Notes: a model not told the origin generated them from the letters alone. 64,000 nucleotides of DNA from Eledone cirrhosa (GCA_964016885.1 OZ024752.1:8122001-8186000), one strand, 5' to 3'; positions 1,241 through 62,268 are shown, counted from the stretch's first letter. A program made the numbers and translations.

Positions 1241-1276
<36 letters not shown>

Positions 1277-1318
1277 AATTCAAAATATTAACAAAATAGA
1301 TATTCTTGTGATCAAGTA

Positions 1319-1385
1319 TATTTTATTATACATATTTCAGAGGTACTGAGTTAAGTTCAACAGTACGTCCTCATCAGATAAAATA
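1319..1385 (-). ncRNA. Type I hammerhead ribozyme, canonical core
   Basis: Minus strand: UAUUUUAU CUGAUGA [GGAcGUACUG..CAGUACcUCU] GAAA UAUGUA UA / AUAAAAUA; perfect 8-bp stem I, long stem II, minimal stem III. Confidence 0.75.
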
Positions 1386-2419
1386 AGATGATGCATGACA
1401 TACCCTGACATACTAGATGGTTAAGATTCAGTCATTGTAGTGAGTAATATATGACAAAACTCAATATTTATACCTTAATATTGAGAACATGAGAAAAATA
1501 TATAATACATACAATAGAGAGGTGCGTGTAATACAGCTTAAAAAATACATGGCATCAATATAACTGTTATAAAAATTTAAATTACTGAAGAAAGAGGAAA
1601 GAAAGGAAAGCATAGAGGAAGAAACAGCTGATGGGATAATATAGTTAGTAGATGCCTCGAAAGACAAAAGAGAGATGATTAAAGAGAGAGAGAGAGAGAC
1701 AAAGGGGAATAATTTATGTTCAAGTTTATAGACAATTATCCATATATAAAATATATATCTAAACTTATTTGGTTGACCGTTAATATTCAAAATATTTAAT
1801 TTAAGTTAGTTCAGAGTAATGAATAATATTTTAGGTTTTAAAAGTTAATAGGTATCAGTATTAATATTATAGTATACTATCAAGTTTCATTTTTAAAATT
1901 CAAATTTTATGAAATCAAATTTAAAGGATTTACAAACACGAGAAAGAAAATATGTTTTTTATAACCTCACAAAGGTAAACTTTACCAAAATTATTTATAA
2001 TATTGACAACAGTTTATATATTATATTAGAAATTAGAAAGTATAAGCTTTCACTGTATTTTAGACTAAATAAATTTCTAGCCTGATAGTGGGGTTTATAA
2101 CCCTCGGAGAAATGGAAAAAGATGAGTGTTGCCTTACATGGCAAACTCGCGCACCGTTTCAAAAACATACTTACATGTTTACGTTTATATAATATAATTT
2201 ATAAAATAATTACAATTATAATTATTAAAGAATTTATGATTAACAATTTGAGTGTCTAAAGGATCAACAGGCCTTATAATTAAACTTAAAGAAGTCTGAA
2301 TTTTAAATTACATATATGTGTTAATCAAAAAATATACAAGGATTATATTGTCTAAAGACTTAAGGTGATATCTTTCAAATATACATAACTAGTATGTCAG
2401 GGTATGTCATGCATCGTCT

Positions 2420-2486
2420 TATTTTATCTAATGAGGACGTACTGTTGAACTTAATTCAGTACCTCTGAAATATGTATAATAAAATA
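2420..2486 (+). pseudogene. Hammerhead copy with core mutation (CUAAUGA)
   Basis: Inverted twin of 1319-1385; ctaatga at 2428-2434 replaces ctgatga. Confidence 0.7.
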
Positions 2487-2545
2487 TACTTGATCACAAG
2501 AATATCTATTTTGTTAATATTTTGAATTAATATGGAATTAATAAT

Positions 2546-2873
2546 GGAGGCACATGGCTTAGTGGTTAGAGCATTGGCCTTGCAATCGAAAGGTTGTGAG
2601 TTCAATTCTCAGACCGGGTGATGTGTTGTTTCCTTGAGCAAGACACTTTCACATTGCTCCAGTTTACTCAGCTGTAGAAATGAGATGATAGGGACTGGGG
2701 TCCCTATCATTCCACTGCAAAGTGGTCGTGGAGGTGCCACGGCAAAAAAGCACCCAGCACTCACTGTAAATGAGGTTGGTGTTAGGAAGGGCATTCAGCT
2801 GTAGAAATCAAGCCAGAATCAGTTCCCGTCCCACCCTTGCAAGCAGGGAAAAGCGGACGTAAAATGATGATGA
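2546..2873 (+). mobile_element. Full-length tRNA-derived SINE with RTE-type tail
   Basis: A box tggcttagtgg, B box gagttcaattc, central ccttgagcaagacacttt block, (GAT)n tail; near-identical copies at 32645-32972, 36070-36423 and 61082-61427. Confidence 0.85.
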
Positions 2874-2987
2874 ACTCTGGAAAACCAAATACTGTTGAGT
2901 GCTTCCAATCTATTGTAAAACTCATTCTTTGATTTATTCATTGAACCTTGTTTAACTTTTAAATATATATATATATTTATTAAAATA

Positions 2988-3063
2988 ACAGATTAAAGTT
3001 TAAGCAAAGAATCGCTGCTTTCACCCTTAACGGGATCTTCTGAAACTAACAAAGTCAATCTGT
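2988..3063 (-). ncRNA. Variant-core type I hammerhead-like fold (inverted copy)
   Basis: Exact reverse complement of 3937-4012. Confidence 0.55.
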
Positions 3064-3936
3064 AAACGCAGAAATGGATATTTAAAAAAACGTTGCAACC
3101 GGAGGAAGACGATACTTTGGTTCGTGGAAACGTTCGCTGGCAAAGAACAGGAAAAAACGAATAATACGTCATTAATAGGAGCGGTGAAAAACAATTACGC
3201 GCAAAGACAGAACCACGTTTATGGTATAAAAGAGGTCGTAGACTAATGTTCTCTTAGGTGGTGCATAGAGACGTTCTCTGGCAATGAACAAAAAAACGAA
3301 AATAATAAGTCATATGTGGAGCGTGGAGAACAATAGCACGCAAAGACAAAACCACGTAAATGGTATAGCAGAAGTCGTAGACTAAAATTGATCTCCGCTA
3401 CTGAGTTAAGAACAAAGTAAATAAATACAATACAGAAGTAATAGAAACAAATAAATACATACATGCAAACAGATACGTACATACACAAGCATATGCAAAA
3501 CCTTACCATAGGTATACAAAACCACGCACATATAAATATGTGTGTGTGTGTGCGCTTGTGTACAAATAAATAAATAAATAATTATATCAACGTATATAAG
3601 TAAATAAATACGTATATAATAAGCTATACCATTTACGTGGTTTTGTCTTTGCGTGCTATTGTTCTCCACGCTCCACATATGACTTATTATCTTCGTTTTT
3701 TCGTTCATTGCCAGAGAATGTCTCTATGCACCACCTAAGAGAACATTAGTCTACGACCTCTTTTATACCATAAACGTGGTTCTGTCTTTGCGCGTAATTG
3801 TTTTTCACCGCTCCTATTAATGACGTATTATTCGTTTTTTCCCGTTCTTTGCCAGCGAACGTTTCCACGAACCAAAGTATCGTCTTCCTGTCTTCCTCCG
3901 GTTGCAACGTTTTTTGAAATATCCAGTTCTGCGTTT

Positions 3937-4012
3937 ACAGATTGACTTTGTTAGTTTCAGAAGATCCCGTTAAGGGTGAAAGCAGCGATTCTTTGCTTAA
4001 ACTTTAATCTGT
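3937..4012 (+). ncRNA. Variant-core type I hammerhead-like fold (CAGAAGA)
   Basis: ACAGAUUGA-cuuuguu-AGUUU CAGAAGA uCCC-guuaa-GGGu GAAA GCAG-cgauucu-UUGC UU / AAACU UUAAUCUGU; all three stems pair. Confidence 0.55.
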
Positions 4013-4344
4013 TATTTTAATAAATATTTGCTCTACGGTTCTTATATATTTTCCTTATCGAGCCCTCTTTGGATTTTAGTCTTCAATTTTATTATTATTA
4101 CTATATATATATATATATATATCTACAAGCAACACACAAAAAACAGCAATTTCAGTTAGATTAAAAATCCTTTCAACCCTACATTGACTCTCCTCATTTG
4201 CTAACCACTTTATAACAGTGCAACAGGTGCAGTTTATTGGAGCACTAACACTAGTGAGGTTGTCATGTCCTCAGCCAGACTAAAAGAGTTCTTAACCATA
4301 TGTTTTTCTCTGATCATTTACCAACCGCTAAAGTGTGTACGACA

Positions 4345-4500
4345 CAGCGACTTGGCAGAGTCATTAGAACGTCAGATAGAATACTTTATGGTATCCATTA
4401 TGGCTCTCTGCTCTCCGAGTTCAAATTCCGCCGAAATCAACTTTGCCTTTCGTCCTTTCAAGATCGATAAAATAAGTACCAGTCTAGTACTGGGGTCAGT
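4345..4500 (+). mobile_element. tRNA-derived SINE, second family
   Basis: B box gagttcaaattcc followed by ctttgcctttcgtcctttc..gataaaataagtaccag; other copies near 29930, 30600, 38950-39590, 45385, 48770, 52700 and 54840-55310. Confidence 0.75.
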
Positions 4501-4939
4501 TCTTCTTCTATATCTCTTTCTCATCTCCTCTCTCTCTCACTTTCTATCTTACTCTAGAAGAAATCTGCTGTATTCAGGCCTGGAGAGGAGTGGGCTCCGC
4601 CAGGCTTAAAATGCCCAAGAAATACCGTAGGTCAATATGACACCCCTATGACTCTTATCAGAAGTTATGGGACCATACATACAAAGAGTGTACAAGATGC
4701 AGTCATTCATGGCACCAATACTACTCAGGTTTGCTTTCTGCCACACAAAGTTAAAGTGACATCACTATTTAAGCCATCATTTTTAAAAAATCACAAATCA
4801 TTCAGAAGCTGCAATTGTTATGAGAGGGTGACAAAGAACTTTCACCAATATCATGTTTATTCCGAGTAAAAACTGAAAACTGAATAAGCCAGAAGAGAAC
4901 ATAATAAAGCAGTAGACAGGTGAGATTTTCACGTTAATT

Positions 4940-5432
4940 AAGGATGTATTGGATATCCTAGATGGGAGTGATAGTTATGGTAGGTTATAGTTGATATGTC
5001 AGGAGAGTATCTTCATGATATTCTAGATGGGAATATGATATGACATGATGTCAGGAGAATATATCCATGATATCCTAGATGGGAGTCATCATCATCATCG
5101 TTTAACGTCTATCTTCCACGATAGCATGGGTTTAGACGGGAATTGTCCCACGTAAGGCAAGATTGGTTGTCTTGCTCGTATGGCACTGTCTGGCAGCCCT
5201 TCCTAACGCCAACCACGTTTACAGTGTGGACTGGGAGGTTTTTACTGTGTTACCTACATGGCATGATAGTAGTTACCTACACGGAGTGATAGTAGTTATT
5301 CTAGGTCAAATTTGATATGATATCAGGAGAGTATCTTCATGATATTCTAGATGGGAGTGATATATGATATCAGGAGAGTATTTCCATGATATTCTAGATG
5401 GGAGTGATATATATCAGGAGAGTATTTCCATG
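4940..5432. repeat. Degenerate ~50-60 bp tandem repeat interrupted by an RTE-tail insert (5087-5280, minus strand)
   Basis: Recurrent caggagagtatcttcatgatattctagatgggagtgat units. Confidence 0.7.
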
Positions 5433-5873
5433 AAAAACAAAAGCACTTTAAAGACATTGAAACATTCTAAGTTTCAATTGATGTCTGCTGCTGCTGCTAC
5501 TACTACTACTCTCTCTCCCCCTCAATCCCTTCACTACACTATTGTAAAGAATCTAAATACGGATGCCGGCATGTAAACCTTATTTCAAATGTATTACAGT
5601 TTCTTTGTTATTTATGAAAAGAGGGGAAATATTTTAGACACAATTTGATCACACACAGGCATGCATTCTTATTGGAAAAAATGTGATTAAGTCATGCGAT
5701 TTGGACTGGGTGATGTTCAATAGTATAGCATGATAATGCTGCTTTTTAACACATTTTAACCCTTTATTCTAACATTCCTACTTTGATCAGGATCTTCAAT
5801 ACTCTTCAATTTAATCCCTAAAAATGATTTTGCTTTACACATGTGTCATCTTACATATATTATCATCTCTTTT

Positions 5874-8800
5874 ACACACTAACACAGGTTTAATACAACC
5901 TTCCAACACACTGACACAGGTTTAATACAACCTTTCAACACACTGACACAGGTTTGATATGACCTTTCAACACACTGACACAGGTTTGATACGACTTTCA
6001 ACACACTGACACAGGTTTAATATGACCTTTCAACACACTGACACAGGTTTGATATGACCTTTCAACACTGACACAGGTTTAATACAACCTTCCAACACAC
6101 TGACACAGGTTTGATATGACTTTCAACAAACTGACACAGGTTTGATACAACTTTCAACACACTGACACAGGTTTGATACGACTTTCAACACACTGACACA
6201 GGTTTGATACGACTTTCAACAAACTGACACAGGTTTAATATGACCTTTCAACACTGACACAGGTTTGATATGACCTTTAACAACTGACACAGGTTTAATA
6301 CAACCTTCCAACACACTGACACAGGTTTGATACGACTTTCAACAAACTGACACAGGTTTGATACGACTTTCAACACACTGACACATGTTTAATACAACTT
6401 TCAACACACTGACACAGGTTTAATACAACTTTCAACACACTGACACAGGTTTGATACGACTTTCAACACACTGACACAGGTTTGATACGACTTTCAACAC
6501 ATTGACACAGGTTTGATATGACCTTTCAACACACTGACACAGGTTTGATATGACTTTCAACACATTGACACAGGTTTGATACGACTTTCAACACACTGAC
6601 ACAGGTTTGATATGACCTTTCAACACACTGACACAGGTTTGATACAACCTTCCAACACACTGACACAGGTTTGATACAACCTTTCAACACACAGACACAG
6701 GTTTGATACAACTTTCAACACACTGACACAGGTTTGATACGACTTTCAACACACTGACACAGGTTTGATACAACCTTCCAACACACTGACACAGGTTTGA
6801 TACGACTTTCAACACACTGACACAGGTTTGATACAACCTTCCAACACACTGACACAGGTTTGATACAACCTTCCAACACACTGACACTGGTTTGATACAA
6901 CCTTCCAACACACTGACACAGGTTTGATACAACCTTTCAACACACTGACACAGGTTTGATACGACTTTCAACACACTGACACAGGTTTGATACAACCTTC
7001 CAACACACTGACACAGGTTTGATATGACCTTTCAACACACTGACACAGGTTTGATATGACCTTTCAACACACTGACACAGGTTTGATACAACTTTCAACA
7101 CACTGACACAGGTTTGATACAACCTTTCAACACACTGACACAGGTTTGATACAACCTTCCAACACACTGACACAGGTTTGATATGACCTTTCAACACACT
7201 GACACAGGTTTGATATGACCTTTCAACACACTGACACAGGTTTGATATGACTTTCCAACACACTGACACAGGTTTGATATGACCTTTCAACACACTGACA
7301 CAGGTTTGATATGACCTTCCAACACACTGACACAGGTTTGATACGACTTTCAACACACTGACACAGGTTTGATACAACTTTCAACACAGACACAGGTTTG
7401 ATACAACCTTCCAACACACTGACACAGGTTTGATACAACCTTTCAACACACTGACACAGGTTTGATACAACTTTCAACACACTGACACAGGTTTGATACA
7501 ACCTTCCAACACACTGACACAGGTTTGATACGACTTTCAACACACTGACACAGGTTTGATATGACCTTTCAACACACTGACACAGGTTTAATACGACTTT
7601 CAACACACTGACACAGGTTCGATACGACTTTCAACACACTGACACAGGTTTAATACGAATTTCAACACACTGACACAGGTTTAATACGACTTTCAACACA
7701 CTGACACAGGTTCGATACGACTTTCAACACACTGACACAGGTTCGATACGACTTTCAACACACTGACACAGGTTTGATATGACCTTTCAACACTGACACA
7801 GGTTTAATACAACCTTCCAACACACTGACACAGGTTTGATATGACCTTTCAACACACTGACACAGGTTTAATACGACTTTCAACACACTGACACAGGTTC
7901 GATACGACTTTCAACACACTGACACAGGTTTGATACGACTTTCAACACACTGACACAGGTTTGATATGACCTTTCAACACACTGACACAGGTTTGATACA
8001 ACTTTCAACACACTCACACAGGTTTGATACAACCTTCCAACACACTGACACAGGTTTGATACGACTTTCAACACACTGACACAGGTTTAATACGACTTTC
8101 AACACACTGACACAGGTTTGATATGACCTTTCAACACAGACACAGGTTTGATATGACCTTTCAACACAGACACAGGTTTGATACAACCTTCCAACACACT
8201 GACACAGGTTTGATACGACTTTCAACAAACTGACACAGGTTTGATACGACTTTCAACACACTGACACAGGTTTGATACGACTTTCAACACACTGACACAG
8301 GTTTAATACGACTTTCAACACACTGACACAGGTTTGATATGACCTTTCAACACAGACACAGGTTTGATACAACCTTCCAACACACTGACACAGGTTTGAT
8401 ATGACCTTCCAACACACTGACACAGGTTTGATACAACTTTCAACACACTGACACAGGTTTGATACAACTTTCAACACACTGACACAGGTTTGATACAACT
8501 TTCAACACACTGACACAGGTTTGATACAACCTTCCAACACACTGACACAGGTTTGATACAACCTTCCAACACACTGACACAGGTTTGATACAACTTTCAA
8601 CACACTGACACAGGTTTGATACAACTTTCAACACACTGACACAGGTTTGATACAACTTTCAACACACTGACACAGGTTTGATATGACCTTTCAACACACT
8701 GACACAGGTTTGATATGACCTTCCAACACACTGACACAGGTTTGATACAACTTTCAACACACTGACACAGGTTTGATATGACCTTTCAACACACTGACAC

Positions 8801-32612: not shown

Positions 32613-33363
32613 CCGTATATACTCGTATAAGCCAAGAAATTCATTTCATTTTATTTTACGTCCGCTTTTTCCCTGCTTGCAAGGGTAGGACGGGAACTGA
32701 TTCTGGCTTGATTTCTACAGCTGGATGCCCTTCCTAACACCAACCTCATTTACAGTGAGTGCTGGGTGCTTTTTTGCTGTGGCACCTCCACGACCACTTT
32801 GCAGTGGAATGATAGGGACCCCAGTCCCTATCATCTCATTTCTACAGCTGAGTAAACTGGAGCAATGTGAAATAAAGTGTCTTGCTCAAGGAAACAACAC
32901 ATCACCTGGTCTGAGAATTGAACTCACAACCTTTCGATTGCAAGGCCAATGCTCTAACCACTAAGCCATATGTGACAAAAAAAAAATCGATAATAAAGTG
33001 TGTGTGTGGGGGGGGGGGGGGGGGTATATTCAAGGCCAATATTTTACCAACTTAAAATTCTACATAGTTTCACTTTGGAGGTGAAATTCATTTTGAATTA
33101 ACATAGCCTTCAAAACTGTCAGCAATTGGTTAAAAAAAAAAAAAATCCATTACTTAAGGGAGTTGTAAAACAAAAACTATACTCTAAAGACAAATCATTT
33201 TAAATATCAAAATATTAAAACTTCATAAATATACTCTCCACTCATGAGAATTTCAAAATTACACCATCTAAACATGTTGATTAGCTGCTTCGGTTTATAC
33301 ATGGGTTAGGGTTTTATCCATTTCTCAGGCATAAAATAGGGACCAGCTTATATTGAGTAAATG
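32613..33363. mobile_element. Decayed pogo/Tigger-like MITE interrupted by a SINE
   Basis: ta-ccgtatatactcgtataagcc at the left end, degenerate cagcttatattgagtaaatg at the right end. Confidence 0.4.
32645..32972 (-). mobile_element. tRNA-derived SINE with RTE-type tail
   Basis: Near-identical reverse complement of 2546-2873. Confidence 0.85.
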
Positions 33364-34739: not shown

Positions 34740-37700
34740 TTCTACATATTTCATCCACTTCAAATACTAGCCACTTCTCTATGTAATTGACAACCTCCAT
34801 ATCAATGTAGTCCTCTTTGTTACCTACAACATCTACTCCTTTTATAACCAGTTTTTCACTCAGTTCATTTGTTCTCCATCGTTCATGCACACATTACACA
34901 TCCAGTGGACCATTCTCACTTTGTTTCTCTCCTCTCAACTCTTCATTCAAAGCCCATTTCTCACTACCATGCAACATTGCACCTCAAACAACATATCCTT
35001 CACCGAGAGAAACAAATCCTTCATTACCAGCCAATTTAATAATTTCCTGAACTATTTCTGCCTCATTCTTAAACTGTTAACTATATTTTTGGAACACTTA
35101 CATCTACTGTTAAGTCACCTAACTAACAAAACCTTTCCACTACTTCTCAAGAGCCTTCCGACCATTTGAAATAACTATGTCCTCCTAACTGCTAGTGTAC
35201 ATCTGTCACATACAATGCCTCCTCTGTCAAACTGTCTACAATTCCTTGTAGTAGATCCATATTTTACACTGGGAACACTGTATGTAATTCTTACCTACTG
35301 CTTTTCTGTATGTCCAGCATAGCCATTTCCATGATGCTATGAGAGTCCTGTCTTCATTTCTACTTACCAAAACTTTAGTCTTTGCTACATTTACTTTGAG
35401 GCCTCTTCATTCTAGCTCCTGAATTTCTTCTATAAGAACTAGTTTGTCAGCATACAAAACTTCCCATGGACAGCCAGTCTTTAACTCCTCAGTTATGGTC
35501 AGAATGACTACAATAAACAGAAGGGGCCTGAGAACTGAACCCAGATAGACTCTTAAATGCATACTTGCTCAACTCATGGCTAACGCTAAACTTGACTGCA
35601 CCCCTGAACATGGTTAGTACAGATTTTACAAGCCGTTATCTAGCCCTAGATTTCTTAGCAACCTCCAGACTATAAAACATAGAACCATGTCAAAACCCTT
35701 CCCCGGGTCAATGAATGTGAAGTACGTGTGCAGTTGTTTCCCTAGGAAGAGAACATCAGTGATATCTCCTCCTTTAGCATTTACACATTACACTATATAT
35801 ACCATTGTATTTTCATGGTAAACACTTCATCTCACATATCAAATCTATGAGATTTTTATATTATTCATTTTGAGAATACCTTAACATAAGTATGAGTAGC
35901 CAGTTACAGCTGGTTTGAACAGAAAGAGGTGAGAGAATTCTGGCCAGATATGGTTGGTTTAAATGCTAAAGAGTTAAGATATAACTCTTTCCATAATTTT
36001 CATAACCTGGCCCCATTTTATACCTTTATAGTTAGTTCTTGAGGCTAGCGTGGAAAATAGACAAACGATGGAGGCACATGGCTTAGTGGTTAGAGCATTG
36101 GCCTTGCAATCGAAAGGTTGTGAGTTCAATTCTCAGACCAGGTGATGTGTTGTTTACTTGAGCAAGACACTTTATTTCACATTGCTCCAGTTTACTCAGC
36201 TGTAGAAATGAGATGATAAGGACTGGGGTCCCTATCATTCCACTGTAGAGTGGTCGTGGAGGTGCCATGGCAAAAAAGCACCCACCACTCACTGTAAATG
36301 AGGTTGGTGTTAGGAAGGGCATCCAGCTGTAGAAATCAAGCCAGCATCAGTTTCCGTCCCACCCTTGCAAGCAGGGAAAAAGCGGACGTAAAATGAAATG
36401 ATGATGATGATGGCGATGATGATGTTTCAGTGTGACACTTTTCTGTTCTACCTGACTAGAATGTGATATTATCAACATCATAGCACTGATCAGAGGATTC
36501 AGCCACCTGCCCAGCCTTCATATCCTTAATTACACTTGCGGCCACACTTGATTATAATGGCTGATCCCTCTTCTAAGTCTACCTGGAGTAGGCCTTCTCA
36601 CTCCAGTACATTCTCCTCATTCAATAACTTCTCATAACAGCACTTCCATACCTATTTCCTTTTCATCATGAGTATAAGTAGGGGCGCGCGTTATTTCATA
36701 CACATGTCTCCCCATGATATCTCAAGTCTCTATAATAAACTGCCATGCAATCTAAAATATTTCACCTTACTTTCGACTTCTTCCCTACCTTAGTATACCT
36801 GAGGTCTAGTTTCCCTTTTGACTACTTGATATTGCTCTTTCTCAGTCAGTTTCTTAGCTTTTATGACTATCTACAGCAATATTCCACCACTATATCACCT
36901 TCTGTCTAGCTGGAACCTTGGTTTGTTCTCATCAGTAGAACCTCCCAATTGTCTTCTATGTCTCCAGTTCCTTCTCTCCCGATAAATCTCTCAAGATACA
37001 ACTTGATGGCTAAATCTTCCTTTTCTTTAAATCTATGTAACTCTTACTTTAAACTTAATAATTGCTAGTCAATGCTAGGTGGTTCATCAACCAAATATAT
37101 ACCACATCTCCTGGCTTGTCTATTTGACGCGTTAGTAATCAGACTGTTTTCTCAAGTGTGACAAATTATTAACAATATAGCATTTACATTACTTTATATT
37201 TACTATTGTATTTTTGTGGTAAAGGCTTTATCTTACATAATATCAGAGCTACAAGATTTTGATGTTATTTATTTTGAGAACAATACCTTAACATTGGTAT
37301 GAGTGGTGGCCAATTACAGGTTTGAACAGAAAGAGGTGAGAGAATTCTGGCCAGATATGACTGGTTTCAATCATTTTTGTGTCACAGAACTCTAGGAGCC
37401 TTGATTTCCCCTCATTTCTTGAACAAGTCATAACCTCCAGGTAAACTATAGAAGCCTTCACAATGTACTGTTACATGATAATGAGGTCAGTGTCATTTAT
37501 CAAGATAGTGTGTAGGAGAGCTTCATAGAAGTAGTCGTATTCACCTGCCAGACCTGATTGTGGCACACATGCTAGATAAAAATTGCCATCATGTTGTCTA
37601 AGACTAGATTAATCTTAACGATTTTCTCACACAAACTGACTACCTCAATTACTTTATCTACCCATTTCTCTGCCAACTTCCACCCCACTCTGCTACTATT

Positions 37701-38252: not shown

Positions 38253-38345
38253 AAAAATGTGGAACGCTTCACAAATTTGTGTATCATCCTTGCATAGGAG
38301 CCTTGCTAATCTGTATCACTCCAATTTTAGAATATGTACTGCGAT
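38253..38345 (-). pseudogene. U6: U6 snRNA pseudogene
   Basis: Reverse complement aligns to U6 (..ctaaaattgga..gatacag[del]attagcaaggctcctatgcaaggatgatacacaaatttgtgaagcgttccacattttt); ACAGAGA box disrupted; CpG decay. Confidence 0.9.
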
Positions 38346-38508
38346 CAGATGTAATATATTTCTCTTGTACGTAATCTTTGACTCTCAGCTTCACTACAGG
38401 GAAGACATCTTCCTACCCTACCTCATTAGCATCAAATTACTGCTACTCTCAAATGTTATCTCACAGATCTTCATTGTCAGACTAACATGAAAAGATAAAT
38501 GAACTATA

Positions 38509-44009: not shown

Positions 44010-44048
44010 TGAGCTGATGAACCGAATAAGGTGAAACAATTGTTCTTG
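44010..44048 (+). ncRNA. Minimal type I hammerhead ribozyme, canonical core, 5'-truncated stem I
   Basis: UGAG CUGAUGA ACC-gaauaa-GGU GAAA CAAUUG UU / CUUG; palindromic stem III; flanked by TA tracts. Confidence 0.7.
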
Positions 44049-44280
44049 GTAATGGTGAACTGTTGTAGAACTACTATATATATATATATATAAATGAAAA
44101 TAGAGAAATTAATGTGAGCAAGAAGCCAACAGTAATTCATACATATAAGTGACTATTACGTCAAGATGGAAAATATTTAACGTAAGATATGGGAAAATAA
44201 TTCAATCTCAATTCAAAAAAAGTCATGAAAAATTTTATCCACAGATTTTGTGTAACATATATATATATATATTATATATA

Positions 44281-44540
44281 GAGTTATAAACTCAAATAGT
44301 CCTTTACAATTAAATAGTTCAAAGAAAGGAATATTTCTGAGCCGTGTAATACAAATGAATATATGATAGGGATAAACACTGATACAAGTATACATGTGTT
44401 TGCATTGCAAATGACCAAGTTAGCTAGATTGAAAAATACTAATTATTTTAATTAGTATTTTTCAATCTAGCTAACTTGGTCATTTGCAATGCAAACACAT
44501 GTATACTTGTATCAGTGTTTATCCCTATCATATATTCATT

Positions 44541-44545
<5 letters not shown>
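44281..44545 (-). mobile_element. (TA)n-embedded foldback C: perfect 97-bp arms plus a 68-nt tail
   Basis: 44349-44445 is the exact reverse complement of 44449-44545; 3-nt loop. Confidence 0.85.
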
Positions 44546-52905: not shown

Positions 52906-52957
52906 TCATGATGATGATGATGGTGGTGGTGGTATTTATGTCAACATTTCCATACTG

Positions 52958-53140
52958 CAGACGTGACAACTCTCCCCATTCGGCAGGGAGATCTCCCACC
53001 CACTTTGGAGTGGGTGAGAGATGTTTTCTCTTGTGAAAAATAGGTATAGCTTTCATTATGTAAAATCTCCCCACTTTGCCTCATTTCTCCCCTTTTTCCA
53101 TGGTACTCCCCGTTTAGGTTTTTAGAGGTTGGCATGTCTG
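52958..53140. mobile_element. hAT-like MITE
   Basis: TIR cagacgtgacaac / gttggcatgtctg; flanking direct repeat atactg; second inverted copy at 57388-57582. Confidence 0.75.
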
Positions 53141-53225
53141 ATACTGGCATGGGAAGGACGAAACGTTTTTGAGGCAATATTTTATGGTCAGATGCCCTTC
53201 CTGGCACCAACATATACATTTATTT

Positions 53226-53620: not shown

Positions 53621-53630
53621 CTCGTCATAC

Positions 53631-53760
53631 CATCATCATTTTATGACTGCTTTTCCCTGCTTGCAAGGGTGGGATGGATCCTATTCAGCACAGCATCTCT
53701 CCATTCGTCACAGTCCTTTGTCATCTCTTCTGTGAGCTTCAGCAATCTGAGGTCAGCTCT
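53631..53760 (-). mobile_element. RTE 3' end
   Basis: Similar to 12118-12250. Confidence 0.75.
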
Positions 53761-54209
53761 TTTAAATGGAGCACCAAATTGGTAGCTAGGTCTCCCCATT
53801 TACAGTACTTCTCTTCTTCACCCACTTATTTCTGAGAGGGTCGTGGAGGAAGAGTCCTTAAACACTCCTTCCAAGCAAGTTGTCAAAAGCAACTGTCTCC
53901 AGCTGATCAGGCTGGGTCCTCCAAATGAGACCAGCCAAGCTCATGGATATTATCCAACCATCTTGCTGTGGGACTCCTGCCATTTTGTTTTACCCATAAA
54001 ATCTGTCCAGTGATTGTTTCCTGAGTCATTCTAACCACATGTCCATAGTACCAGAGCTGTTGTAATTCCTAAATGTAATCTGATGGTCCTAGTAAGTAGA
54101 TGAGAAAACAGAACCCTGATCCTCTCAGGGAAATGTCCTTGCTTAATATGTAGGAAAAGTGTAGGTAGAAATTCCATCCTCAGCTCCAAATGCCAACTAT
54201 GGGTACACA

Positions 54210-54505
54210 AAAGATGTAGTGGGATCTCAGGAAGTTTAGCTAAGAATGTAGGCTTTACATGTAGCATTTGCACTGAGGCAACAAGCAGCAAACGACTGCA
54301 AGAAACAAGTGCTACCAAACACTGGGAGATCTCAGAAGAAACAGTAGACAGCTTCTGCTACCTAGGTGACTGAATTAGCAGCTGAGGTGGGTGTTCTGAA
54401 GGTTCAGTAGCTTGAGTGAGAAAGGGATGGAAGAAGTTCGGGGAGCTGCTAGCTACAAAAGGTTTTTCCCTTAAAATGAAAGTCAGACTATTTGATGCTT
54501 AGCAG
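54210..54505 (+). mobile_element. RTE LINE RT remnant
   Basis: VDSFCYLGD*IS..GGCSEGSVA*VRKGWKKF..ATKGFSLKMKVRLFDA. Confidence 0.75.
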
Positions 54506-54839
54506 TGAGACCATAATTTACTCTCCAAAATATCAGGATCATAATGATGATGACTCATGTTGCTTTTGAACATTTGTAGAAGTCAGAAAAATAAGAAGCT
54601 GGGAGGGAATTCCATAGGCAAGATGTTCAAGGGAAGAAACTATCAGATTAGCATTTCTGATTCATCGACATCACTGTTTAACCTCCATTTTTACATGCTA
54701 GCATGGGTTAGGCGAGTTATCCTGTTATCAGCAATGCCAGATCAGGTAACCATGTCTTGCTCATACAGAACCGATTTTGGCTTGGTTTCTACAGCTGGTA
54801 GTTGCAGGTTATTCCAGGTTATTGCCCTCCTAGATGACT

Positions 54840-55310
54840 ATATAATTGTTTCTACATTTGGCACCAGGTCAGTAATTTGAAAAGGGAAAAGTCGATTACA
54901 TTGACCCAGTGCATTACTGGTACTTTATTTTGTCAACCCCGTAAGGATGAAAGGTAAAGCTAACCTCGGCGGGATTTGAACTCAGAATGCAAAGGGACAT
55001 AACTATATGCTGTAAAGCATGCCGTCTGACATTCTACTGATACTGCCAATAATTGTTTCTACTTTTGGCACAAGGCCAGCAATTATCCCAGTGTATTACT
55101 GGTACTTTCTTTTATCGACCTCGTAAGGATGAAAGGCAAAGTTAACCTCAGCGGGATTTGAACTCAGACCATGAATAATAATAATTTGGACTGGTATTTT
55201 ATTTATCAACCCTGAAAGGATGAAAGGTGAAGTGGGATTTGAACTCAGAATGTAAAGAATCAGAACAAATACAAAGAGATTTCATCTGACACTCTAATGA
55301 CTCTGCCAAT
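54840..55310 (-). mobile_element. Tandem cluster of three SINEs (second family)
   Basis: Three ggatgaaagg..gggatttgaactcag blocks. Confidence 0.75.
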
Positions 55311-55518
55311 TTTCTGAGATATAAAATCACTGACCTTAACATCTTGTTTGAAAGTTCTGGATGTATTATTTGTCAATAGCTCAGTTTTGATGGGATGAAT
55401 GTTTTGAAAATTGAGCCGTGGTCCACACAAGTTTGACAAACTGGTTTTCTCAGTATACAACCTATAAAGCACAAAAGGTAGCAAATATGCATGATTTTAA
55501 CTATGTCTCAAGCATTAG

Positions 55519-56612
55519 CCCATCAGCATTTACATTACTCTATATATACTATTGTATTTTCACAGTAAAGGCTTTACCTCACATAATATCTCACATAACA
55601 TTTACATTACTCTATATATACTATTGTATTTTCACAGTAAAGTCTTTACCTCACATAACATTTACATTACTCTATATATACTATTGTATTTTCACAGTAA
55701 AGTCTTTACCTCACATAATACCTCACATAACATTTACATTACTCTATATATACTATTGTATTTTCACAGTAAAGTCTTTACCTCACATAATATCTCACAT
55801 AACATTTACATTACTCTATGTATACTATTGTATTTTCACAGTAAAGTCTTTACCTCACATAACATTTACATTACTCTATATATACTATTGTATTTTCACA
55901 GTAAAGGCTTTACTCTCATAATATCTCACATAACATTTACATTAATCTATATACTATTGTATTTTCACAGTAAAGGCTTTACCTCACATAATATCTCACA
56001 TAACATTTACATTACTCTATATATTCTATTGTATTTTCACAGTAAAGTCTTTACCTCACATAACATTTACATTACTCTATATATACTATTGTATTTTCAC
56101 AGTAAAGGCTTTACCTCACATAATATTTACATTACTCTATATAACCTATTGTATATATAGAGTAATGTAAATGTTATGTGAGACATTATGTGAGGTAAAA
56201 CCTTTACCATGAAAATATAATAGTATATATAGAGTAATGTAAATGTTATGTGAGATATTATGAGAGTAAAGTCTTTACTGTGAAAATACAATAGTATATA
56301 TAGAGTAATGTAAATGTTATGTGAGATATTATGTGAGGTAAAGACTTTACTGTGAAAATACAATAGTATATATAGAGTAATGTAAATGTTATGTGAGATA
56401 TTATGTGAGGTAAAGCCTTTACTGTGAAAATACAATAGTATATATAGAGTAATGTAAATGTTATGTGAGATATTATGTGAGGTAAAGCCTTTACTGTGAA
56501 AATACAATAGTATATATAGAGTAATGTAAATGTTATGTGAGATATTATGTGAGGTAAAGCCTTTACTGTGAAAATACAATAGTATATATAGAGTAATGTA
56601 AATGGTAAAGGG
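55519..56612. repeat. Palindromic pair of tandem arrays (60/71-bp unit) derived from a piggyBac-MITE end
   Basis: About 9 forward units to ~56140, then about 6 reverse-complement units ending aaaggg-TTAA. Confidence 0.9.
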
Positions 56613-56787
56613 TTAAAGACAATATAGGTTAGAGATGATAGTGCCTGGCACCATGATAAAATACACCCAGTACACTCTTAGCAGTACACAAGCTAAGAGT
56701 CTCATGAGACTAGGGCTTATTTGCTTGCTGAGTGGGGTGGACCTCTCAAATCGGATTGTTTTCTCAAGTTGGTGTGACAAATTATTA

Positions 56788-57004
56788 ACCCCTTAGCATT
56801 TACATTACTCTATATTTACTATTGCATTTTTGTCGTAAAGGTTTTATCTCACATAATTATCCCACATAGTATCAAATCTATGAGATTCTTATATTATTTA
56901 TTTTGATAACAATACCTTAAGATCAGAGTGACCATTACAGCCAGTTTTAACAGAAAGAGGTGAGAGAATTCTGGCCGGATATGGTCAGTTTAAATTCTAA
57001 AGGG
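56788..57004. mobile_element. piggyBac-type MITE
   Basis: ttaa-ccccttagcatttac ... aaattctaaaggg-ttta. Confidence 0.8.
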
Positions 57005-57387
57005 TTTACACACAACAAACTTTATCTACAACCTCCTCACATCAACAAAACCTTTTTTGTTATATTGTTGATTCATCTTGTGAATAAAGTTGTTGACTTT
57101 CATTCAATGTCAGTCGACTTAACACCATATCGGATGTCTTTGTTGTTTAAAAATAATTATCAAATCTTAACTTATTTTAACTAGGTGCAGGCATGGCTGT
57201 GTAATTAATTAGTCTGACTTGCAAGCTGTGAGTTTTGAGGGTTCAATCATATTTTGGGGTTGACCATTACCTTGTGGGTGAAATTTGATAGATGGACACT
57301 GCAGAAATAAGTGTGTGTGTGCGTGTCTCTCTCTCTCTCTCTCTCTCTTTCTGTGCACGTGTGTGTGTGTGTGCGTGCATGCGTGTG

Positions 57388-57582
57388 AAGACTTACCAAC
57401 CTCTAAAAACCTAAACAGGGAGAACCATGAAAAAAATTGCCCCAAAACGGGGAGAAATGAGGCAAAATGGGGAGATTTTACATAATGAAAGCTATACCCA
57501 TTTTTACAAGAGAAGACATCTCTCACCTACCCCAAAGTGGGTGAGAGATCTCCCCGTTAGATGGGGAGAGTTGACAGGTCTG
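57388..57582. mobile_element. hAT-like MITE, inverted copy of 52958-53140
   Basis: Reverse-complement similarity along the full length; lies in a (GT)n tract. Confidence 0.75.
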
Positions 57583-58131
57583 GTGTGTGTGTATGTGTCT
57601 GTCTGTGTGCGTGTGTCCCCATGTCTGTGTCAATATTTATGTCCTATAACCTAGCAGTTTGACAAAAAGGCATTGATAAAATAAGATAAATACTGTGGTT
57701 GATATGATCACCTTTCAGGTAGTGCTTCAGTATGATTGCTATCTAAAGACCTTGGAATGAAGGAGATTTTCTTGAAGCATTTCAACTTCCAAACGTTGAA
57801 TCTGTGGAGGAAATAACCAGGGCCTCCAAGAGAAATCTTGCAAGGTGGTACAAGACCCCTTTGGGGCCCGAAACAGGCAAAGATTTTTCTCAAAATAGAT
57901 GTTGCATGGTTGCTGTGGGATCTTCTTAGGTCTTGGGCCCCAAAACAAAGTACCGAGTGGACTCTGCTCTCATAGGACTTGCAAATAACACCATATGTAT
58001 TTAAATTTTTCCATAGTAACCCTGTTCTAATTTCAACTATAGTAGCTTCCCATATTAGTACCAAAGTGGAGACAGCATAGTCAAATGGTTAAGCTGTTTG
58101 TTTCAGTATCATTAGGTCCTCGGTTCAATCT

Positions 58132-59225
58132 CATAGAACCAGGGGTGGGTTTGTTACATAGAACCAGGAGTGGATGTTATATAGAACCAGGAGTGGATTT
58201 GTTACATAGAACCAGGGGTGGGGTTGTTATATAGAACCAGGGTTGGGTTTGTTATATAGAACCAGAGGTGGGTTTGTTATATAGAACCAGGGGTGGGGTT
58301 GTTATATAGAACCAGGGGTGGGGTTGTTATATAGAACCAGAGGTGGGTTTGTTATATAGAACCAAGGGTGGGGTTGTTATATAGAACCAGAGGTGGGTTT
58401 GTTACAGAGAACTAGGGGTGGGTTTGTTATATAGAACCTGGGGTGGGGTTGTTATATAGAACCAGGGGTGGGTTTGTTATATAGAACCAGGGTTGGGTTT
58501 GTTATATAGAACCAGAGGTGGGTTTGTTACATAGAACCAGGGGTGGGTTTGTTATATAGAACCAGGGGTGGGTTTGTTATATAGAACCAGAGGTGGGTTT
58601 GTTACATAGAACCAGAGGTGGGTTTGTTACATAGAACCAGGGGTGGGTTTGCTATATAGAACCAGCGGTGGGTTTGTTACATAGATCCAGGGGTGGGTTT
58701 GTTACATAGAACCAGGGGTGGGGTTGTTATATAGAACCAGGGGTGGGGTTGTTATATAGAACCAGGGGTGGGGTTGTTACATAGAACCAGAGGTGGGTTT
58801 GTTACATAGAACCAGGGGTGGGGTTGTTACATAGAACCAGAGGTGGGTTTGTTACATAGAACCAGGGGTGGGTTTGTTATATAGAACCAGCGGTGGGATT
58901 GTTATATAGAACCAGGGGTGGGGTTGTTATATAGAACCAGGGGTGGGGTTGTTACATAGAACCAGGAGTGGTGTTGTTATATAGAACCAGGAGTGGATTT
59001 GTTACATAGAACCAGGGGTGGGTTTGTTACATAGAACTAGGGGTGGGTTTGTTACATAGAACTAATGGTGGGTTTGTTATATAGAACTAGAGGTGGGTTT
59101 GTTACATAGAACCAGAGGTGGGGTTGTTATATAGAACCAGGGTTGGGGTTGTTATATAGAACCAGGGGTGGTGTTGTTACATAGAACCAGGGGTGGGGTT
59201 GTTATATAGAACCAGGGGTGGGGTT
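58132..59225. repeat. 25-bp G-rich minisatellite, ~44 copies
   Basis: Unit [c/t]atagaaccaggggtgggtttgtta. Confidence 0.95.
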
Positions 59226-59468
59226 GGCCAGTTTGGGATTGAAAGGGTTAAAGAGAGTTTGTTGAAAGATTACATTGTTACATTAGGCTCATGCACTGTC
59301 ATACATTTTCATTCACTCATTTACACACCTATATACACACACACCTACACACACAGTCATCATATTTCAATACAAAGCTTTCCTGAGAAGTAATCCACAC
59401 CTACCTACCTTGACACTTGATCACCCTCCACCCCCTCCACCACCATGCTGTATGTGACAGTGTGCATG

Positions 59469-59502
<34 letters not shown>

Positions 59503-59610
59503 TACACACATTTATATATGTATGTATATATATATATATATATATAATATTGTTTAGCAGGGAAAGCAGGTGCTCAGCAATGATGACTACTATGATATAT
59601 ATATATATAT

Positions 59611-60140
59611 CATCATCATCATCGTTTAACGTCCATCTTCCACGCTAGCATGGGTTTGGACGGGAATTTTCCCACTTGAGGCAAGATTGGTCGTCTTGCT
59701 CAGGACTGTCTGGCAGGTTTTCTATGGCTGGATGCCTTTCCTAACACCAACCACGTTTACAGTGTGGACTGGGAGGTTTTTACCATGTTACCTACACGGC
59801 CACATTACAGCGTGGACTGTGTTTTTTTGTTGTGACACCTACATGGCCTCATTTATTTAGGACTGGATGTTGTGGTATCAACATAACTTTACATCGAAAG
59901 GGGTGGTGTGGATGGGGTGAGGGGATAGTGGGACGGGGGTGTATTTTAGTAAGAGGTGCCTACTGACTGTAGTAGGTTTCGCTTTGCACTTAGGCAAGGC
60001 GGGTCTTCTGTATTACTGCGTAGCGCCAAAGATCTCGGTCAGTGACATTGTCTTGGAGAGGTGTAAGTGTGTGAGGTCGGAATTTATCAAGTCATCCCAG
60101 GTTTTCCTGGGTCTGCCTACTCCGTGGCTACCGTCTATTT
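59611..60140 (-). mobile_element. RTE LINE 3' end (ORF end and long 3' UTR)
   Basis: Reverse-complement homolog of 60420-61070. Confidence 0.8.
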
Positions 60141-60347
60141 TCTTATATATATATATATAAAATTAAATTAAGGGTGTCATATCTGAGAGACATGCGCCAT
60201 ATCCACTATAGAATATGCTCAAGGATTCCAATGAATAGATCCCTGTAATTGTTTCATATGTTTATTTTATATATATATGTATATATATATATATATATAT
60301 GTCAATCAATTTCTAGTTGATATATATATATATATTGTTGTTTACTC

Positions 60348-61070
60348 GAGAGAAGGCTACGTTGGTATGGTCACGTGATGCGCATGAAAGACGACAGCTG
60401 TATAACAAAGTGGAGGGCAATAAAGATAGACGGTAGCTACGGAGTAAGCAGACCCAGAAAAACCTGGGACGAGCTGATAAATTCCGACCTCACATACTTA
60501 CACCTCTCCAAGACAATGTCACTGGACCGAGACCTTTGGTGGTACTCAGTAATAGAGAAGACCCGCCTTACCTAAATACAAAGTAAAACCTACTAGTCAG
60601 TAGGCATCTCTAACAAAATACACCCCCATCCCACCCCCCCACCCCATCCACACCGCCCCTTTCAATGTAAAGTTATGTTGGTGCCACAACATCCAGGCCG
60701 AAACATATGAGATCGTGTAGGTGTCACGACAAAAAAAACACACAGTCCACGCTGTAATGTGGCCGTGTAGGCAACAGGGTAAAAACCTGCCAGCCCCACA
60801 CTGTAAATGTGGTTGGTGTTAGGAAGGGCATCCAGCTGTAGAAAACCCGCCAGACAGTCCACGCTGTAATGTGGCCGTGTAGGCAACCCGGTAAAAACCT
60901 CCCAGCCCCACACTGTAAATGTGGTTGGTGTTAGGAAGGGCATCCAGCTGTAGAAAACCCGCCAGACAGTCCTATGCGAGCAAGACAATCACTCTTGCCT
61001 CAAGTGGGAAAACCCCCGTCCAAACCCATGCAAGCGTGGAACACGGACGTTAAACGATGATGATGATGAT
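60348..61070 (+). mobile_element. RTE LINE 3' end (ORF end, 3' UTR with internal duplication, (GAT)n tail)
   Basis: ERRLRWYGHVMRMKDDSCITKWRAIKIDGSYGVSRPRKTWDELINSDL. Confidence 0.85.
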
Positions 61071-61081
61071 ATATATATAAA

Positions 61082-61427
61082 TCATCATCATCATCATTTT
61101 ACGTCCGCTTTTCCCTGCTTGCAAGGGTGGGACGGGAACTGATTCTGGCTTCTGGCTTCATTTCAACAGCGGGATGCCCTTCCTAACACCAACCTCATTT
61201 ACAGTGAGTGCTGGGGGCTTCTTTTTCTGTGGCGCCTCCACGACCACTTTGCAGTGGAATGATATGGAACCCAGTCCCTATCATCTCATTTCTACAGCTG
61301 AGTAAACTGGAGCAATGTAAAATAAAGTGTCTTGCTCAAGGAAACAACACATCACCTGGTCTGAGAATTGAACTCACAACCTTTCGATTGCAAGGCCAAT
61401 GCTCTAACCACTAAGCCATGTGCCGTC
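61082..61427 (-). mobile_element. tRNA-derived SINE with RTE-type tail
   Basis: Near-identical reverse complement of 2546-2873. Confidence 0.85.
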
Positions 61428-61548
61428 ATATATATATGTCAAACCCACAAACATTCAGACAAGTCAGACCCCCACAAACACGTCAGATCACGCACAAAAA
61501 CAGATATAATGCCAAGCACATATAAATATATATATATATATATATATA

Positions 61549-61767
61549 GTAATAATAATAAATTTGAAGACTAAAATCCAAAGAGGGCTCGATAAGGATT
61601 AATATATATCATATATATAAGAACCGTAGAGCAAATATTTATTAAAATAACAGATTAAAGTTTAAGCAAAGAATCGTTGCTTTCACCCTTAACGGGATCT
61701 TCTGAAGATCCCGTTAAGAGTGAAAGCAGCGATTCTTTGCTTAAACTTTAATCTGTTATTTTAATAA

Positions 61768-61771
<4 letters not shown>
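61549..61771 (-). mobile_element. (TA)n-embedded foldback D, truncated copy of element B
   Basis: Arms 61635-61702 and 61704-61771; tail 61549-61634 matches 4028-4101. Confidence 0.85.
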
Positions 61772-61798
<27 letters not shown>

Positions 61799-61813
61799 TA
61801 TATATATACAACC

Positions 61814-61849
<36 letters not shown>

Positions 61850-61854
61850 ATATA

Positions 61855-62010
61855 AGTAGAAGGGATATTTAATTTGTTGGAAATTCAACAAATATAAATG
61901 TTTATAACTGATTCAGAGCACTCAACAGATTTCTGGAGTAAATATTCAATGATATTAAATAAATATGGTTTTATAAATATAGTTTCCATTTATTTAATAT
62001 CATTGAATTG
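61855..62010 (-). repeat. (TA)n-embedded tail plus short foldback E
   Basis: attcaatgatattaaataaat (from 61944) pairs with atttatttaatatcattgaat (to 62008). Confidence 0.7.
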
Positions 62011-62125
62011 TATATATATATATATATATACACATATATATGTGGGTGTGTGTGTGTGTGTGTATGTGCATGTTCGTATGTATTTATATATATGTATGTG
62101 TATATGTGTATTTATGTATATATAT

Positions 62126-62268
62126 CAAATTTCGTTTTTGAATTTGTTTTGCGAGATTTCTTATCTGAAAACGTGTGTAGAAACAGATATTGTTATACTT
62201 TGAGAGGGTCATGTTGTCAATTTATTGGCAACATGACCTTGCCAAAGTATAACAATAAATAAATATTT
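62126..62268 (-). repeat. (TA)n-embedded tail plus foldback F
   Basis: Near-perfect hairpin at 62188-62257 (~33-bp arms). Confidence 0.75.

Follow-up and report, generated by a model that had tools for sequence, protein, structure and literature searches.

What are the palindromic inserts that lie in the TA tracts of this stretch of the Eledone cirrhosa genome, and do the hammerhead folds that some of them carry work as ribozymes? The window, one strand of 64,000 nucleotides whose coordinates count from the first letter, had been described in a first-pass annotation as holding six inserts of five unrelated sequences (A to F), read as Penelope-like element (PLE) or retrozyme termini. The results suggest that each insert is the truncated 3' end of a Penelope-like element in (TA)n, with at least six families represented, and that in families B and C a hammerhead fold is retained whose core has A at position 4 (A4) and which would likely work as a slow, damped ribozyme. 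The probability of this combined reading is put at roughly 55%.

The six inserts with inverted arms are real; their arm pairs were re-measured and longer genomic copies were found. Insert A has a long tail-less arm (1272..2388, minus strand) consisting of 3' UTR and pLTR end, which matches the 3' UTR of the ORF-bearing copy L182 at 93-94%, a short arm (2389..2533, plus) and a tail (2874..2962, plus). The arms pair over 145 nt (1272-1416 with 2389-2533) at 98% identity. A tRNA-derived SINE foreign to the PLE (approximately 2534..2873, plus; tRNA-like match at 2555-2612) splits the short arm from the tail, and in other A copies the arm runs straight into the tail. Insert B has a long tail-less arm (2973..3622, minus; 91% to the full-length copy L298), a sense arm that is the pLTR end (3623..4027, plus; 97% to L298) and a tail (4028..4101, plus) that corresponds to the start of the next unit's 5' UTR in L298 and L301; in these full-length copies the tail stops some 45 nt upstream of the ATG. 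The B arms (2973-3369 and 3623-4027) are 96.5% identical over 405 columns. The apparent spacers of A and B are further 3' UTR of the longer, tail-less arm; neither this nor the SINE appeared in the first-pass annotation. Insert C is a palindrome (44349-44545) composed of a tailed arm (44281..44445, minus; arm 44349-44445, tail 44281-44348) and an inverted tail-less arm (44449..44545, plus). Insert D (61549..61771) is, as proposed, a second insertion of family B, to which it matches at 91-98%; its tail (61549-61634, minus) is followed by fold-back arms of 137 nt (61635-61771, 96%). Insert E (61855..62010; 98-99% to L111) has a tailed arm (61855-61964, minus) and an inverted arm (61958-62008, plus), with a 21-nt duplex within 61944-62008. 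Insert F (62126..62268; 89-97% to L139) has a tailed arm (62131-62221, minus) and an inverted arm (62221-62257, plus), which pair within 62188-62257 at 86%. The D-E-F junctions of the window were unspanned by contigs of public runs. The fragment at 44010..44075 (plus) is the tail-less end of a further family, H, which has 1364 first-look candidates in the genome and tailed inverted arms in other copies. The unpaired tails on one arm, described as 60-100 nt, measure about 62-95 nt. As claimed, A, B, C, D and E each lie between two perfect (TA)5+ tracts, whereas F has only degenerate TA/TG; H has one (TA)5+ tract directly 3' and another about 20 nt 5'.

In each of the six families, copies stop at two fixed 3' positions, one with the tail and one without it, and in most cases TA comes next. 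Ends of B fall at two sites in 27 and 27 of 62 cases, with TA after 26 and 25, and ends of A in 23 and 21 of 49. The expected enrichment of TA at the flanks was evident, since TA follows most family ends against a background of 10% in the loci and 1.7% in the window. MITEs with terminal inverted repeats, or fold-back artefacts of the assembly, would also yield nearly perfect palindromes bounded by TA dinucleotides, such as that of C, whose arms are identical over 97 nt. This explanation is very improbable. The tails are one-sided, junctions vary while outer ends are fixed in many copies, and symmetric terminal inverted repeats with a fixed internal length were not found. Substitutions or indels distinguish the two arms in A, B, D and F, and one A arm has acquired the SINE. 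An independent public run contains many different head-to-head joints of B ends, and the termini are continuous with RT/EN ORFs.

This continuity bears directly on the proposal of PLE or retrozyme termini. Extension of the longest copies in the 5' direction reached RT and GIY-YIG ORFs for A, B, F and H. An intact B unit of 3.26 kb consists of pLTR (with hammerhead), tail/5' UTR, a 709-aa RT+GIY-YIG ORF, 3' UTR and pLTR; complete units are found in L298 and L301, and stop-free frames of 713 codons in L296-L298. In 25 of 30 loci chosen by the B endonuclease, the B core lies on the same strand as the endonuclease, mostly about 930 nt downstream. None of these 30 loci has a CTGA core, and no other C-N-GA-N-GA...GAAA core occurs in the complete units. 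The B ORF has RWR, DKT, CxCX5C, CxxC and CxH and lacks CCHH, which agrees with section 11 and the Fig. S7 rows of Craig et al. in a by-eye comparison with the printed alignment. Pfam gave no match to the B ORF, but homologues carry PF26215 and, once, PF01541, and a related endonuclease matches GIY-YIG at E 8e-4. A search of representative proteins with another Hydra ORF, not that of B, returned 350 relatives at E<=1e-30 and nothing on ribozymes. A PDB sequence search gave no match, and the search of public runs with B listed no RNA dataset.

The remaining families can be placed with varying ease. Broken RT/EN ORFs lie on the same strand as the terminus in A (L182), H (L187) and F (L181). The Hydra motifs are present in a frameshifted A copy; in H the RT/EN remnant is directly 5' in L187 and its motifs are degenerate. 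Judged by ORF motifs, A, B and H are Hydra-clade PLEs, and all three show the (TA)n insertion typical of that clade. The canonical CUGANGA hammerhead of the clade is found in A and H but not in B; the protein assigns B to Hydra, and its ribozyme is treated as a variant. A partial-tandem pLTR with an inverted 5'-truncated copy occurs in L298, L301, L041 and L182. The count of five unrelated sequences was nearly right: the hammerheads of A and E form one similarity cluster, and H is a sixth family. E is probably Hydra; a Hydra-type EN remnant lies about 1.7 kb upstream in L111, a tentative link because other inserts lie between. The ORF of F was found in L181 and L137, and a CCHH-type EN with a CX2-5CxxC linker in L181, L137 and L197. 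By motifs only, F appears to be Neptune-type, with Nematis as the alternative.

Which of the termini carry a hammerhead depends on the core that is accepted. A CUGANGA/GAAA/UH descriptor found exactly two sites in the window, against a mean of 0.025 in 40 shuffles. One is H (44014-44044, plus), in line with the view of 44010-44075 as almost only a hammerhead, in this case a canonical minimal one. The other is the left arm of A (1377-1327, minus), part of a canonical minimal type I hammerhead (1317..1387, minus) with CUGAUGA, an 8-bp stem I and a palindromic stem III, conserved in A copies. In the right arm of A the core is broken (CTAATGA). The claim that A, B and D carry hammerheads therefore stands for the left arm of A, whereas the B core is CAGAAGA (U4A) and the D core is a junction product. 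The B type I fold (3953..4003, plus; predicted cut after 3998) has a 5-bp stem I, a 3-bp stem II with U10.1-U11.1 and a 4-bp stem III, and the fold is also present in the long arm at about 2997-3047. In D, CTGAAGA spans the fold-back centre, the 5' strand of stem I is lost and the minimum-energy fold is a hairpin; its CUGA is a creation of the fold-back junction. C, E and F lack a hammerhead inside the window and have one in their longer genomic copies: an A4 hammerhead further 5' than the C copy at 44281..44445, a canonical one just 5' of the E fragment and a canonical one further 5' in F. Rfam cmscan of the window reported no hammerhead family at E<=5, a result that is uninformative here because the canonical minimal folds were missed too.

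Family C is a retrozyme-like tandem unit. It consists of ORF-less, head-to-tail, non-coding units of about 500 nt with one type I hammerhead fold per unit and an A4 core, and in the loci mapped none of the copies continues beyond the unit into an ORF. Derivation of C from B was considered and rejected, since no similarity between them is detectable. In a relative of C, 73% identical, stems I and III are different and A4 is retained.

The A4 core is abundant in both families. That of B has 23,970 exact genome matches (control, 0), with A4 in 100 of the 100 matches listed. B copies are young and near-identical, so this fixation says little about selection. A single recurrent compensatory pair was seen in B, in stem II. 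CTGA occurs in 5 of 63 B-like occurrences, 4 of which are without the native stem I strand, and in the few contigs from four other organisms positions 3958-3965 are unchanged and 3932-3950 differ. The C core has 403 matches, and the first 100 listed have 87 A, 12 C, 1 U and no G at position 4. In 20 C-type rows, hand-picked short-loop forms among 41 distinct sequences with three displaced-stem-I rows kept as misses, 92.8% of cells are paired and 6 of 18 pairs show changes in both partners. These values are equalled by 0-1 of 500 shuffles, and slid controls pair at 18-44%, but such counts on related sequences can exceed shuffles without structure. RNAalifold on this alignment recovered stem III and paired the core with the 3' strand of stem II. 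Type I geometry, with three stems, A15.1-U16.1 and a UH site, is seen in B and C, although for B it is not the preferred fold; isolated C hammerheads fold as a three-way junction in most examples. The invariant C3-U4-G5-A6 turn is absent from both, and because of A4 they are called hammerhead-like variants, not canonical members. The association of A4 with a long stem III is not exclusive, as two U4 clusters have stems III of 4-7 bp. The possibility that A4 builds an "off" helix found no support, because U4 or C4 swapped in silico folded no better. A loose genome pattern (CAGAWGA..GAAAC, 50,674 matches against 31,342 in the control) was discarded as a hammerhead, its commonest match being a LINE-type repeat end with no stem I, and two single further A4 matches were ignored as chance level (2 in two shuffles).

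It is conceivable, though rather unlikely, that the A4 hammerheads of these PLEs are catalytically dead, that B spread with a broken core by chance and that the fold, if kept, is a protein-binding or RT-positioning structure. On this view PLEs can insert without cleavage, so B could spread in this state: hammerhead-dead mutants of the Anolis PLE insert in vitro (PMC11167929), and Naiads proliferate without canonical hammerheads. Pairwise mutagenesis gave low activity for every single mutant of the CUGA turn (PMC9901934), so A4 could be dead rather than slow. The B hammerhead fold is disfavoured in context (-6.0 against -8.8 kcal/mol for the minimum-energy fold; probability <0.1%), stem I pairing with flanks reaches just 0.01-0.10 in B, in C and in the relative of C and is not restored by U4 or C4 in silico, and 5' ends do not pile up at the cut site (B 2/89, A 0/43, C 2/80, F 0/66, E 8/75, in loci biased by retrieval). 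What speaks for a working core is that in the 20 C rows the other core positions, A15.1-U16.1 and GUC are invariant while the stems compensate, the core letters being partly set by the search pattern. Moreover, A4 occurs in two families without detectable similarity, and position 4 is A, C or U, never G, U4C being a known active natural variant.

The opposite case, improbable on present evidence, is that A4 is fully efficient because tertiary contacts between the long stems and loops make up for it, and that C is a retrozyme that actively circularises. In favour are the 8-bp stem I of C, its stem III of 5-13 bp, its GUC site and its head-to-tail units, and invertebrate retrozymes self-cleave efficiently and form circles (PMC7229834). 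However, the only double mutants that rescue the CUGA turn are the C3-G8 swap (PMC9901934), in C and its relative the fold faces competition from an upstream strand, and no partner for a core-loop pseudoknot is present in the loops. A slow, damped ribozyme in B and C is the preferred reading.

A mechanism can be proposed for the insertions. Judging from Frangieh et al. 2024, the GIY-YIG of the element would nick both strands of a (TA)n tract, and RT would start at two internal sites of a tandem read-through RNA. Two prematurely ended cDNAs joined head to head would give TA-[arm]-[arm+tail]-TA with a variable junction, in which either arm may be longer. Copies usually reach 5' beyond the predicted cut site, from which we infer that uncleaved RNA is the usual template. 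In most families the ribozyme may be slowed by a weak palindromic stem III that needs a dimer. In B and C a stable stem III could fold as a monomer, and U4A would slow cleavage instead; residual cleavage may free or circularise unit RNAs, and a PLE protein may copy C in trans.

Published search descriptors incorporate the CUGA U-turn, which is regarded as nearly invariant. The definition of the hammerhead would become wider if an A4 form is maintained in nature together with covarying stems. Such a form would also make testable whether PLE hammerheads must cleave and how fast, with sister families in one genome providing U4, A4 and C4 versions for comparison. A tentative extension, for which the odds are somewhat below even, is that the natural CAGANGA core is under selection and catalytically active and arose here on two or more occasions, in an autonomous Hydra family of about 24,000 copies and in an unrelated retrozyme lineage of about 500-nt units, exchanging a weak stem III that depends on a dimer for a monomeric fold whose U-turn is throttled. 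If so, every CUGANGA-based screen would have missed the class, which may be present in some "hammerhead-less" PLEs and repeats. A major and young part of this genome consists of Hydra-clade PLEs, a group described from a few dozen families and missed here by Pfam and Rfam.

Finally, comparison with known systems suggests that the A4 core is the new point and the insertion anatomy a known system. Craig et al. 2021 (PMC8557442) described the inverted 5'-truncated copy, one-sided tail, (TA)n targeting and hammerheads of the Hydra clade, including a family from Octopus bimaculoides (Hydra-1_Obim), and that part is therefore annotation. The families here share with that clade the single RT+GIY-YIG ORF with RW(K/R), DKT, CxCX5C linker, CxxC and CxH and no CCHH, the hammerhead near the 3' end and, for B, the flanked U10.1-U11.1 layout of many File S2 hammerheads. 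They differ in the A4 core of B, against ctga in 26 of 26 File S2 Hydra rows, in longer tails (62-95 nt against a published 30-40) and in very high copy numbers, with about 60,000 first-look EN candidates besides the B cores. The supplement of PMC8557442 gave no match to four short motifs taken from A, B, C and H, but line breaks could hide matches there. No natural U4A hammerhead variant was found in print. U10.1-U11.1 and U4C are reported natural core variants (Perreault et al. 2011, PMC3088659; Cervera and de la Pena 2014, PMC4209133); the text of these papers, some figures aside, does not name U4A, and the PLE core variant reported there is U3-A8. Poseidon PAc of Anolis (Frangieh et al. 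2024, PMC11167929) likewise has two RT starts that define the tail and an AT-rich target, and its main template is uncleaved RNA, as proposed for the families here, but it belongs to another clade, its core is canonical and its starts lie about 110 nt into the ORF, whereas the B tail ends upstream of the ATG. Animal non-LTR retrozymes (Cervera and de la Pena 2020, PMC7229834; Li et al. 2026, preprint 10.64898/2026.07.22.740005) resemble C in their ORF-less head-to-tail units with one type I hammerhead fold each. C differs in unit length (about 500 against about 300 nt), A4 core, long stem III, and PLE-type two ends, inverted arms and TA targeting. F shares with the Neptune clade, on motifs only, the CX4CxxC linker, CCHH-type EN, LYPSI and RYVDD RT motifs and a microsatellite target, and A, E, F and H share the dimer-type minimal fold with palindromic stem III of the minimal PLE hammerheads (PMC4209133).

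The six inserts A-F and the short hammerhead fragment H (44010-44075) are present where the first-pass annotation placed them. The window (G000:C12:8122001-8186000) belongs to an animal genome of 3.0 Gb, and its repeats look octopus-like. The two arms of the inverted duplication lie at 1272-1416 and 2389-2533 in A (98% identity), at 2973-3369 and 3623-4027 in B (96.5% identity), and at 44349-44445 and 44449-44545 in C. D, proposed to be a copy of B and here assigned to the same family, folds back over 61635-61771 (96%). E contains a 21-nt duplex, and F folds back over 62188-62257 (86%). All six had been described as sitting between TA tracts; A-E have perfect (TA)5 or longer tracts on both sides, but the flanks of F are degenerate. 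The "spacers" of A and B consist of additional 3' UTR, part of a longer arm that lacks the tail, the unpaired stretch continuing one arm only, and a tRNA-type SINE sits between the arm and the tail of A. The head of a tRNA-derived SINE occurs four times in the window (2555-2612, 32911-32968, 36079-36136 and 61361-61418), each copy scoring the same in Rfam. A degenerate U6 snRNA copy lies at 38253-38354 on the minus strand (68.9 bits), and a tandem array with an inverted block at 55515-56616 gives many long inverted-repeat pairs.

The inserts are almost certainly of Penelope-like element (PLE) origin. Their proposed identity as PLE or retrozyme termini is borne out by genomic copies that tie families A, B, F and H to PLE ORFs, with C forming a retrozyme-like unit. 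At L041, one of the genomic loci compared with the window families, the order for B is TA, inverted end with tail, RT, GIY-YIG endonuclease, 3' UTR, tail-less end, TA. The B end is on the same strand in 25 of 30 loci chosen by the endonuclease of B. Loci L298 and L301 have the order pseudo-LTR, tail, 5' UTR, ORF, 3' UTR, pseudo-LTR, and the family B tail opens the next unit; L298 encodes a 709-aa ORF, and 3259 nt separate its two hammerhead cores. The B protein contains the RWR, DKT, CxCX5C, CxxC and CxH motifs and lacks CCHH, a combination that marks the Hydra clade in the available part of Craig et al. 2021 (PMC8557442), whose printed Hydra alignment the protein also resembles. Of 8000 proteins scored, 476 are related to it at E<=1e-10; neither Pfam nor PDB has a match for it, and Pfam has none for either of the two Hydra ORFs searched.

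Families A (L182) and H (L187) are continuous with broken Hydra ORFs, and F is continuous with an ORF of the Neptune type. For E, a probable Hydra family, L111 has a remnant of a Hydra-type endonuclease ~1.7 kb upstream of the E end, separated from it by further inserts. Family C is a head-to-tail unit of ~500 nt, and no C unit running into an ORF was seen in the loci mapped. A second retrozyme-like family is represented by a ~310-nt tandem repeat (L146:1370-1720) whose hammerhead is canonical and minimal. Hydra endonuclease queries in two genome searches returned 59,803 and 61,092 first-look candidates. The 150 scored per search match the query at 95-100% identity, and almost all are stop-free over the match (148/150 and 150/150), which argues that the Hydra families are young. 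Many Hydra frames, from at least two young families genome-wide, are stop-free over 700-860 codons. Read by eye, the Hydra family at L291 (G000:C284) seems to carry a canonical core in its pseudo-LTR, where stem II measures ~100 nt, and to have a very long, microsatellite-rich 3' UTR. At L003/L042 (G000:C1:193.355 Mb), a tailed B end stands head to head with an ORF from another Hydra family, a joint that suggests either that two distinct RNAs took part in one insertion or that an older copy was itself the insertion target.

Every insert family is a high-copy repeat, with first-look genome candidates numbering 1364 for H, 921 for A, 2451 for C, 3013 for E and 3585 for F. The DNA search with family B scored just 21 candidates; an exact 21-mer pattern of this family has 23,970 genome matches (control, 0). 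In the loci compared, the 3' ends of each family cluster at two places and are mostly followed by TA, against a TA background of 10% in the loci and 1.7% in the window. The two clusters hold 27/62 and 27/62 ends in B (TA next in 26 and 25), 23/49 and 21/49 in A (19 and 21), 24/43 and 12/43 in H (23 and 7), 47/104 and 45/104 in E (36 and 39), 34/89 and 37/89 in F (24 and 23), and 28/93 and 60/93 in C (26 and 21). Many of the remaining C ends continue into the next unit. The inner junction of the inserts varies between copies. Different families nest within the same TA tract, and another frequent TA-embedded fold-back family is found at L009, L023, L049 and L111.

Hammerheads had been assigned to A, B and D. 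The left arm of A is canonical, but the core in its right arm is broken, B reads CAGAAGA, and the CTGAAGA of D arises at the fold-back junction and lacks a stem I. A canonical descriptor found two sites in the window, H and the left arm of A (shuffles, 0.025 each; 40 shuffles), and the Rfam scan proposed earlier gave no hammerhead match in the window. An abundant LINE-end repeat (near 3995, minus strand, and 60560, plus strand) resembles a CAGA..GAAAC core; it lacks stem I and was rejected as a hammerhead. C, E and F contain no hammerhead inside the window; longer genomic copies of E and F have canonical minimal folds, and those of C have a fold with A at core position 4 (A4; CAGA) in place of the canonical U4 (CUGA).

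Judged from sequence, what is new here is a high-copy, conserved, hammerhead-like U4A fold in an intact Hydra element and a retrozyme-like lineage. No report of a natural U4A/CAGA core was found, in a search that covered subscription literature thinly, so its novelty is not secure. With position 4 left free, the descriptor recovered 156 distinct folds from 303 loci (1.27 Mb). These fall into 24 clusters, and the majority are U4 with a palindromic stem III of 1-2 bp. In these loci A4 is present in 17/17 distinct B sequences and 27/28 distinct C sequences. A relative 73% identical to C is also A4, and stem III is 4-13 bp in all A4 groups. One cluster is C4 in 4/4 distinct sequences (CCGAAGA; L118, L099 and L183), and none of the 156 folds is G4. 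Genome-wide, A4 is found in 100/100 of the B matches listed, of 23,970, and the first 100 of 403 C matches have 87 A, 12 C and 1 U at this position; a looser C pattern has 658 genome matches versus 1 in the control. B and C have no detectable relatedness. An alignment of 20 short-loop forms, drawn from 41 distinct C-type sequences, has 92.8% of its cells paired and both sides changed in 6/18 pairs, although kinship among sequences can inflate these figures and the core letters are partly set by the search pattern. The B end was also found in four other organisms, with no listed change at 3958-3965 in the few contigs involved.

We favor a model in which the A4 hammerhead is slow yet active, with a probability of roughly 0.55. 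Several observations count against function: the hammerhead fold of B differs from its minimum-energy structure; flanks suppress the predicted fold in B and C with any base at position 4; a long stem III is also present in two U4 clusters of the 303 loci; and CUGA mutants had low activity in pairwise mutagenesis, according to the available part of that study (PMC9901934). A dead A4 hammerhead is rather unlikely in our estimate, and a fully active one is improbable. In C and a divergent relative (L075:1331-1450; L146:421-550), the 5' side of stem-loop II is engaged by a strand lying upstream; this pairing prevents the predicted fold and may act as a conserved off-switch. If the A4 hammerhead is slow yet active, A4 would slow a monomer-competent ribozyme, as weak stem III would slow the other families.

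The insert anatomy, ORF linkage, two 3' ends and TA targets are established here, as is the absence of a 5'-end pile-up at predicted cut sites (B 2/89, A 0/43, C 2/80, F 0/66 and E 8/75, in biased loci). By analogy with what is available of Frangieh et al. (PMC11167929), the endonuclease may cut AT-rich DNA on both strands, and RT may start at two internal sites on uncleaved tandem RNA. A head-to-head join between two truncated cDNAs would yield a palindrome with the tail on one arm. The Anolis hammerhead of that system required protein for cleavage.

The interpretation in the first-pass annotation stands, but it is largely known PLE biology. The 2026 octopus repeat annotation (PMC13282606) lists recently active PLEs and, in its available part, mentions neither hammerheads nor Hydra; no report combining hammerhead, Penelope and octopus was found in literature that included subscription papers thinly. 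In the portions available, Cervera and de la Pena 2014 (PMC4209133) defined the minimal hammerhead fold and a U3-A8 variant, and Perreault et al. 2011 (PMC3088659) named U4C and U10.1-U11.1 as variants. The inverted copy, a 30-40-bp tail and the (TA)n bias were already described in the accessible sections of Craig et al. 2021 (PMC8557442). There, canonical hammerheads are "universal" in Hydra, the element Hydra-1_Obim is described, the core-search descriptors used cuganga, and ctga is found in 26/26 Hydra rows of File S2.
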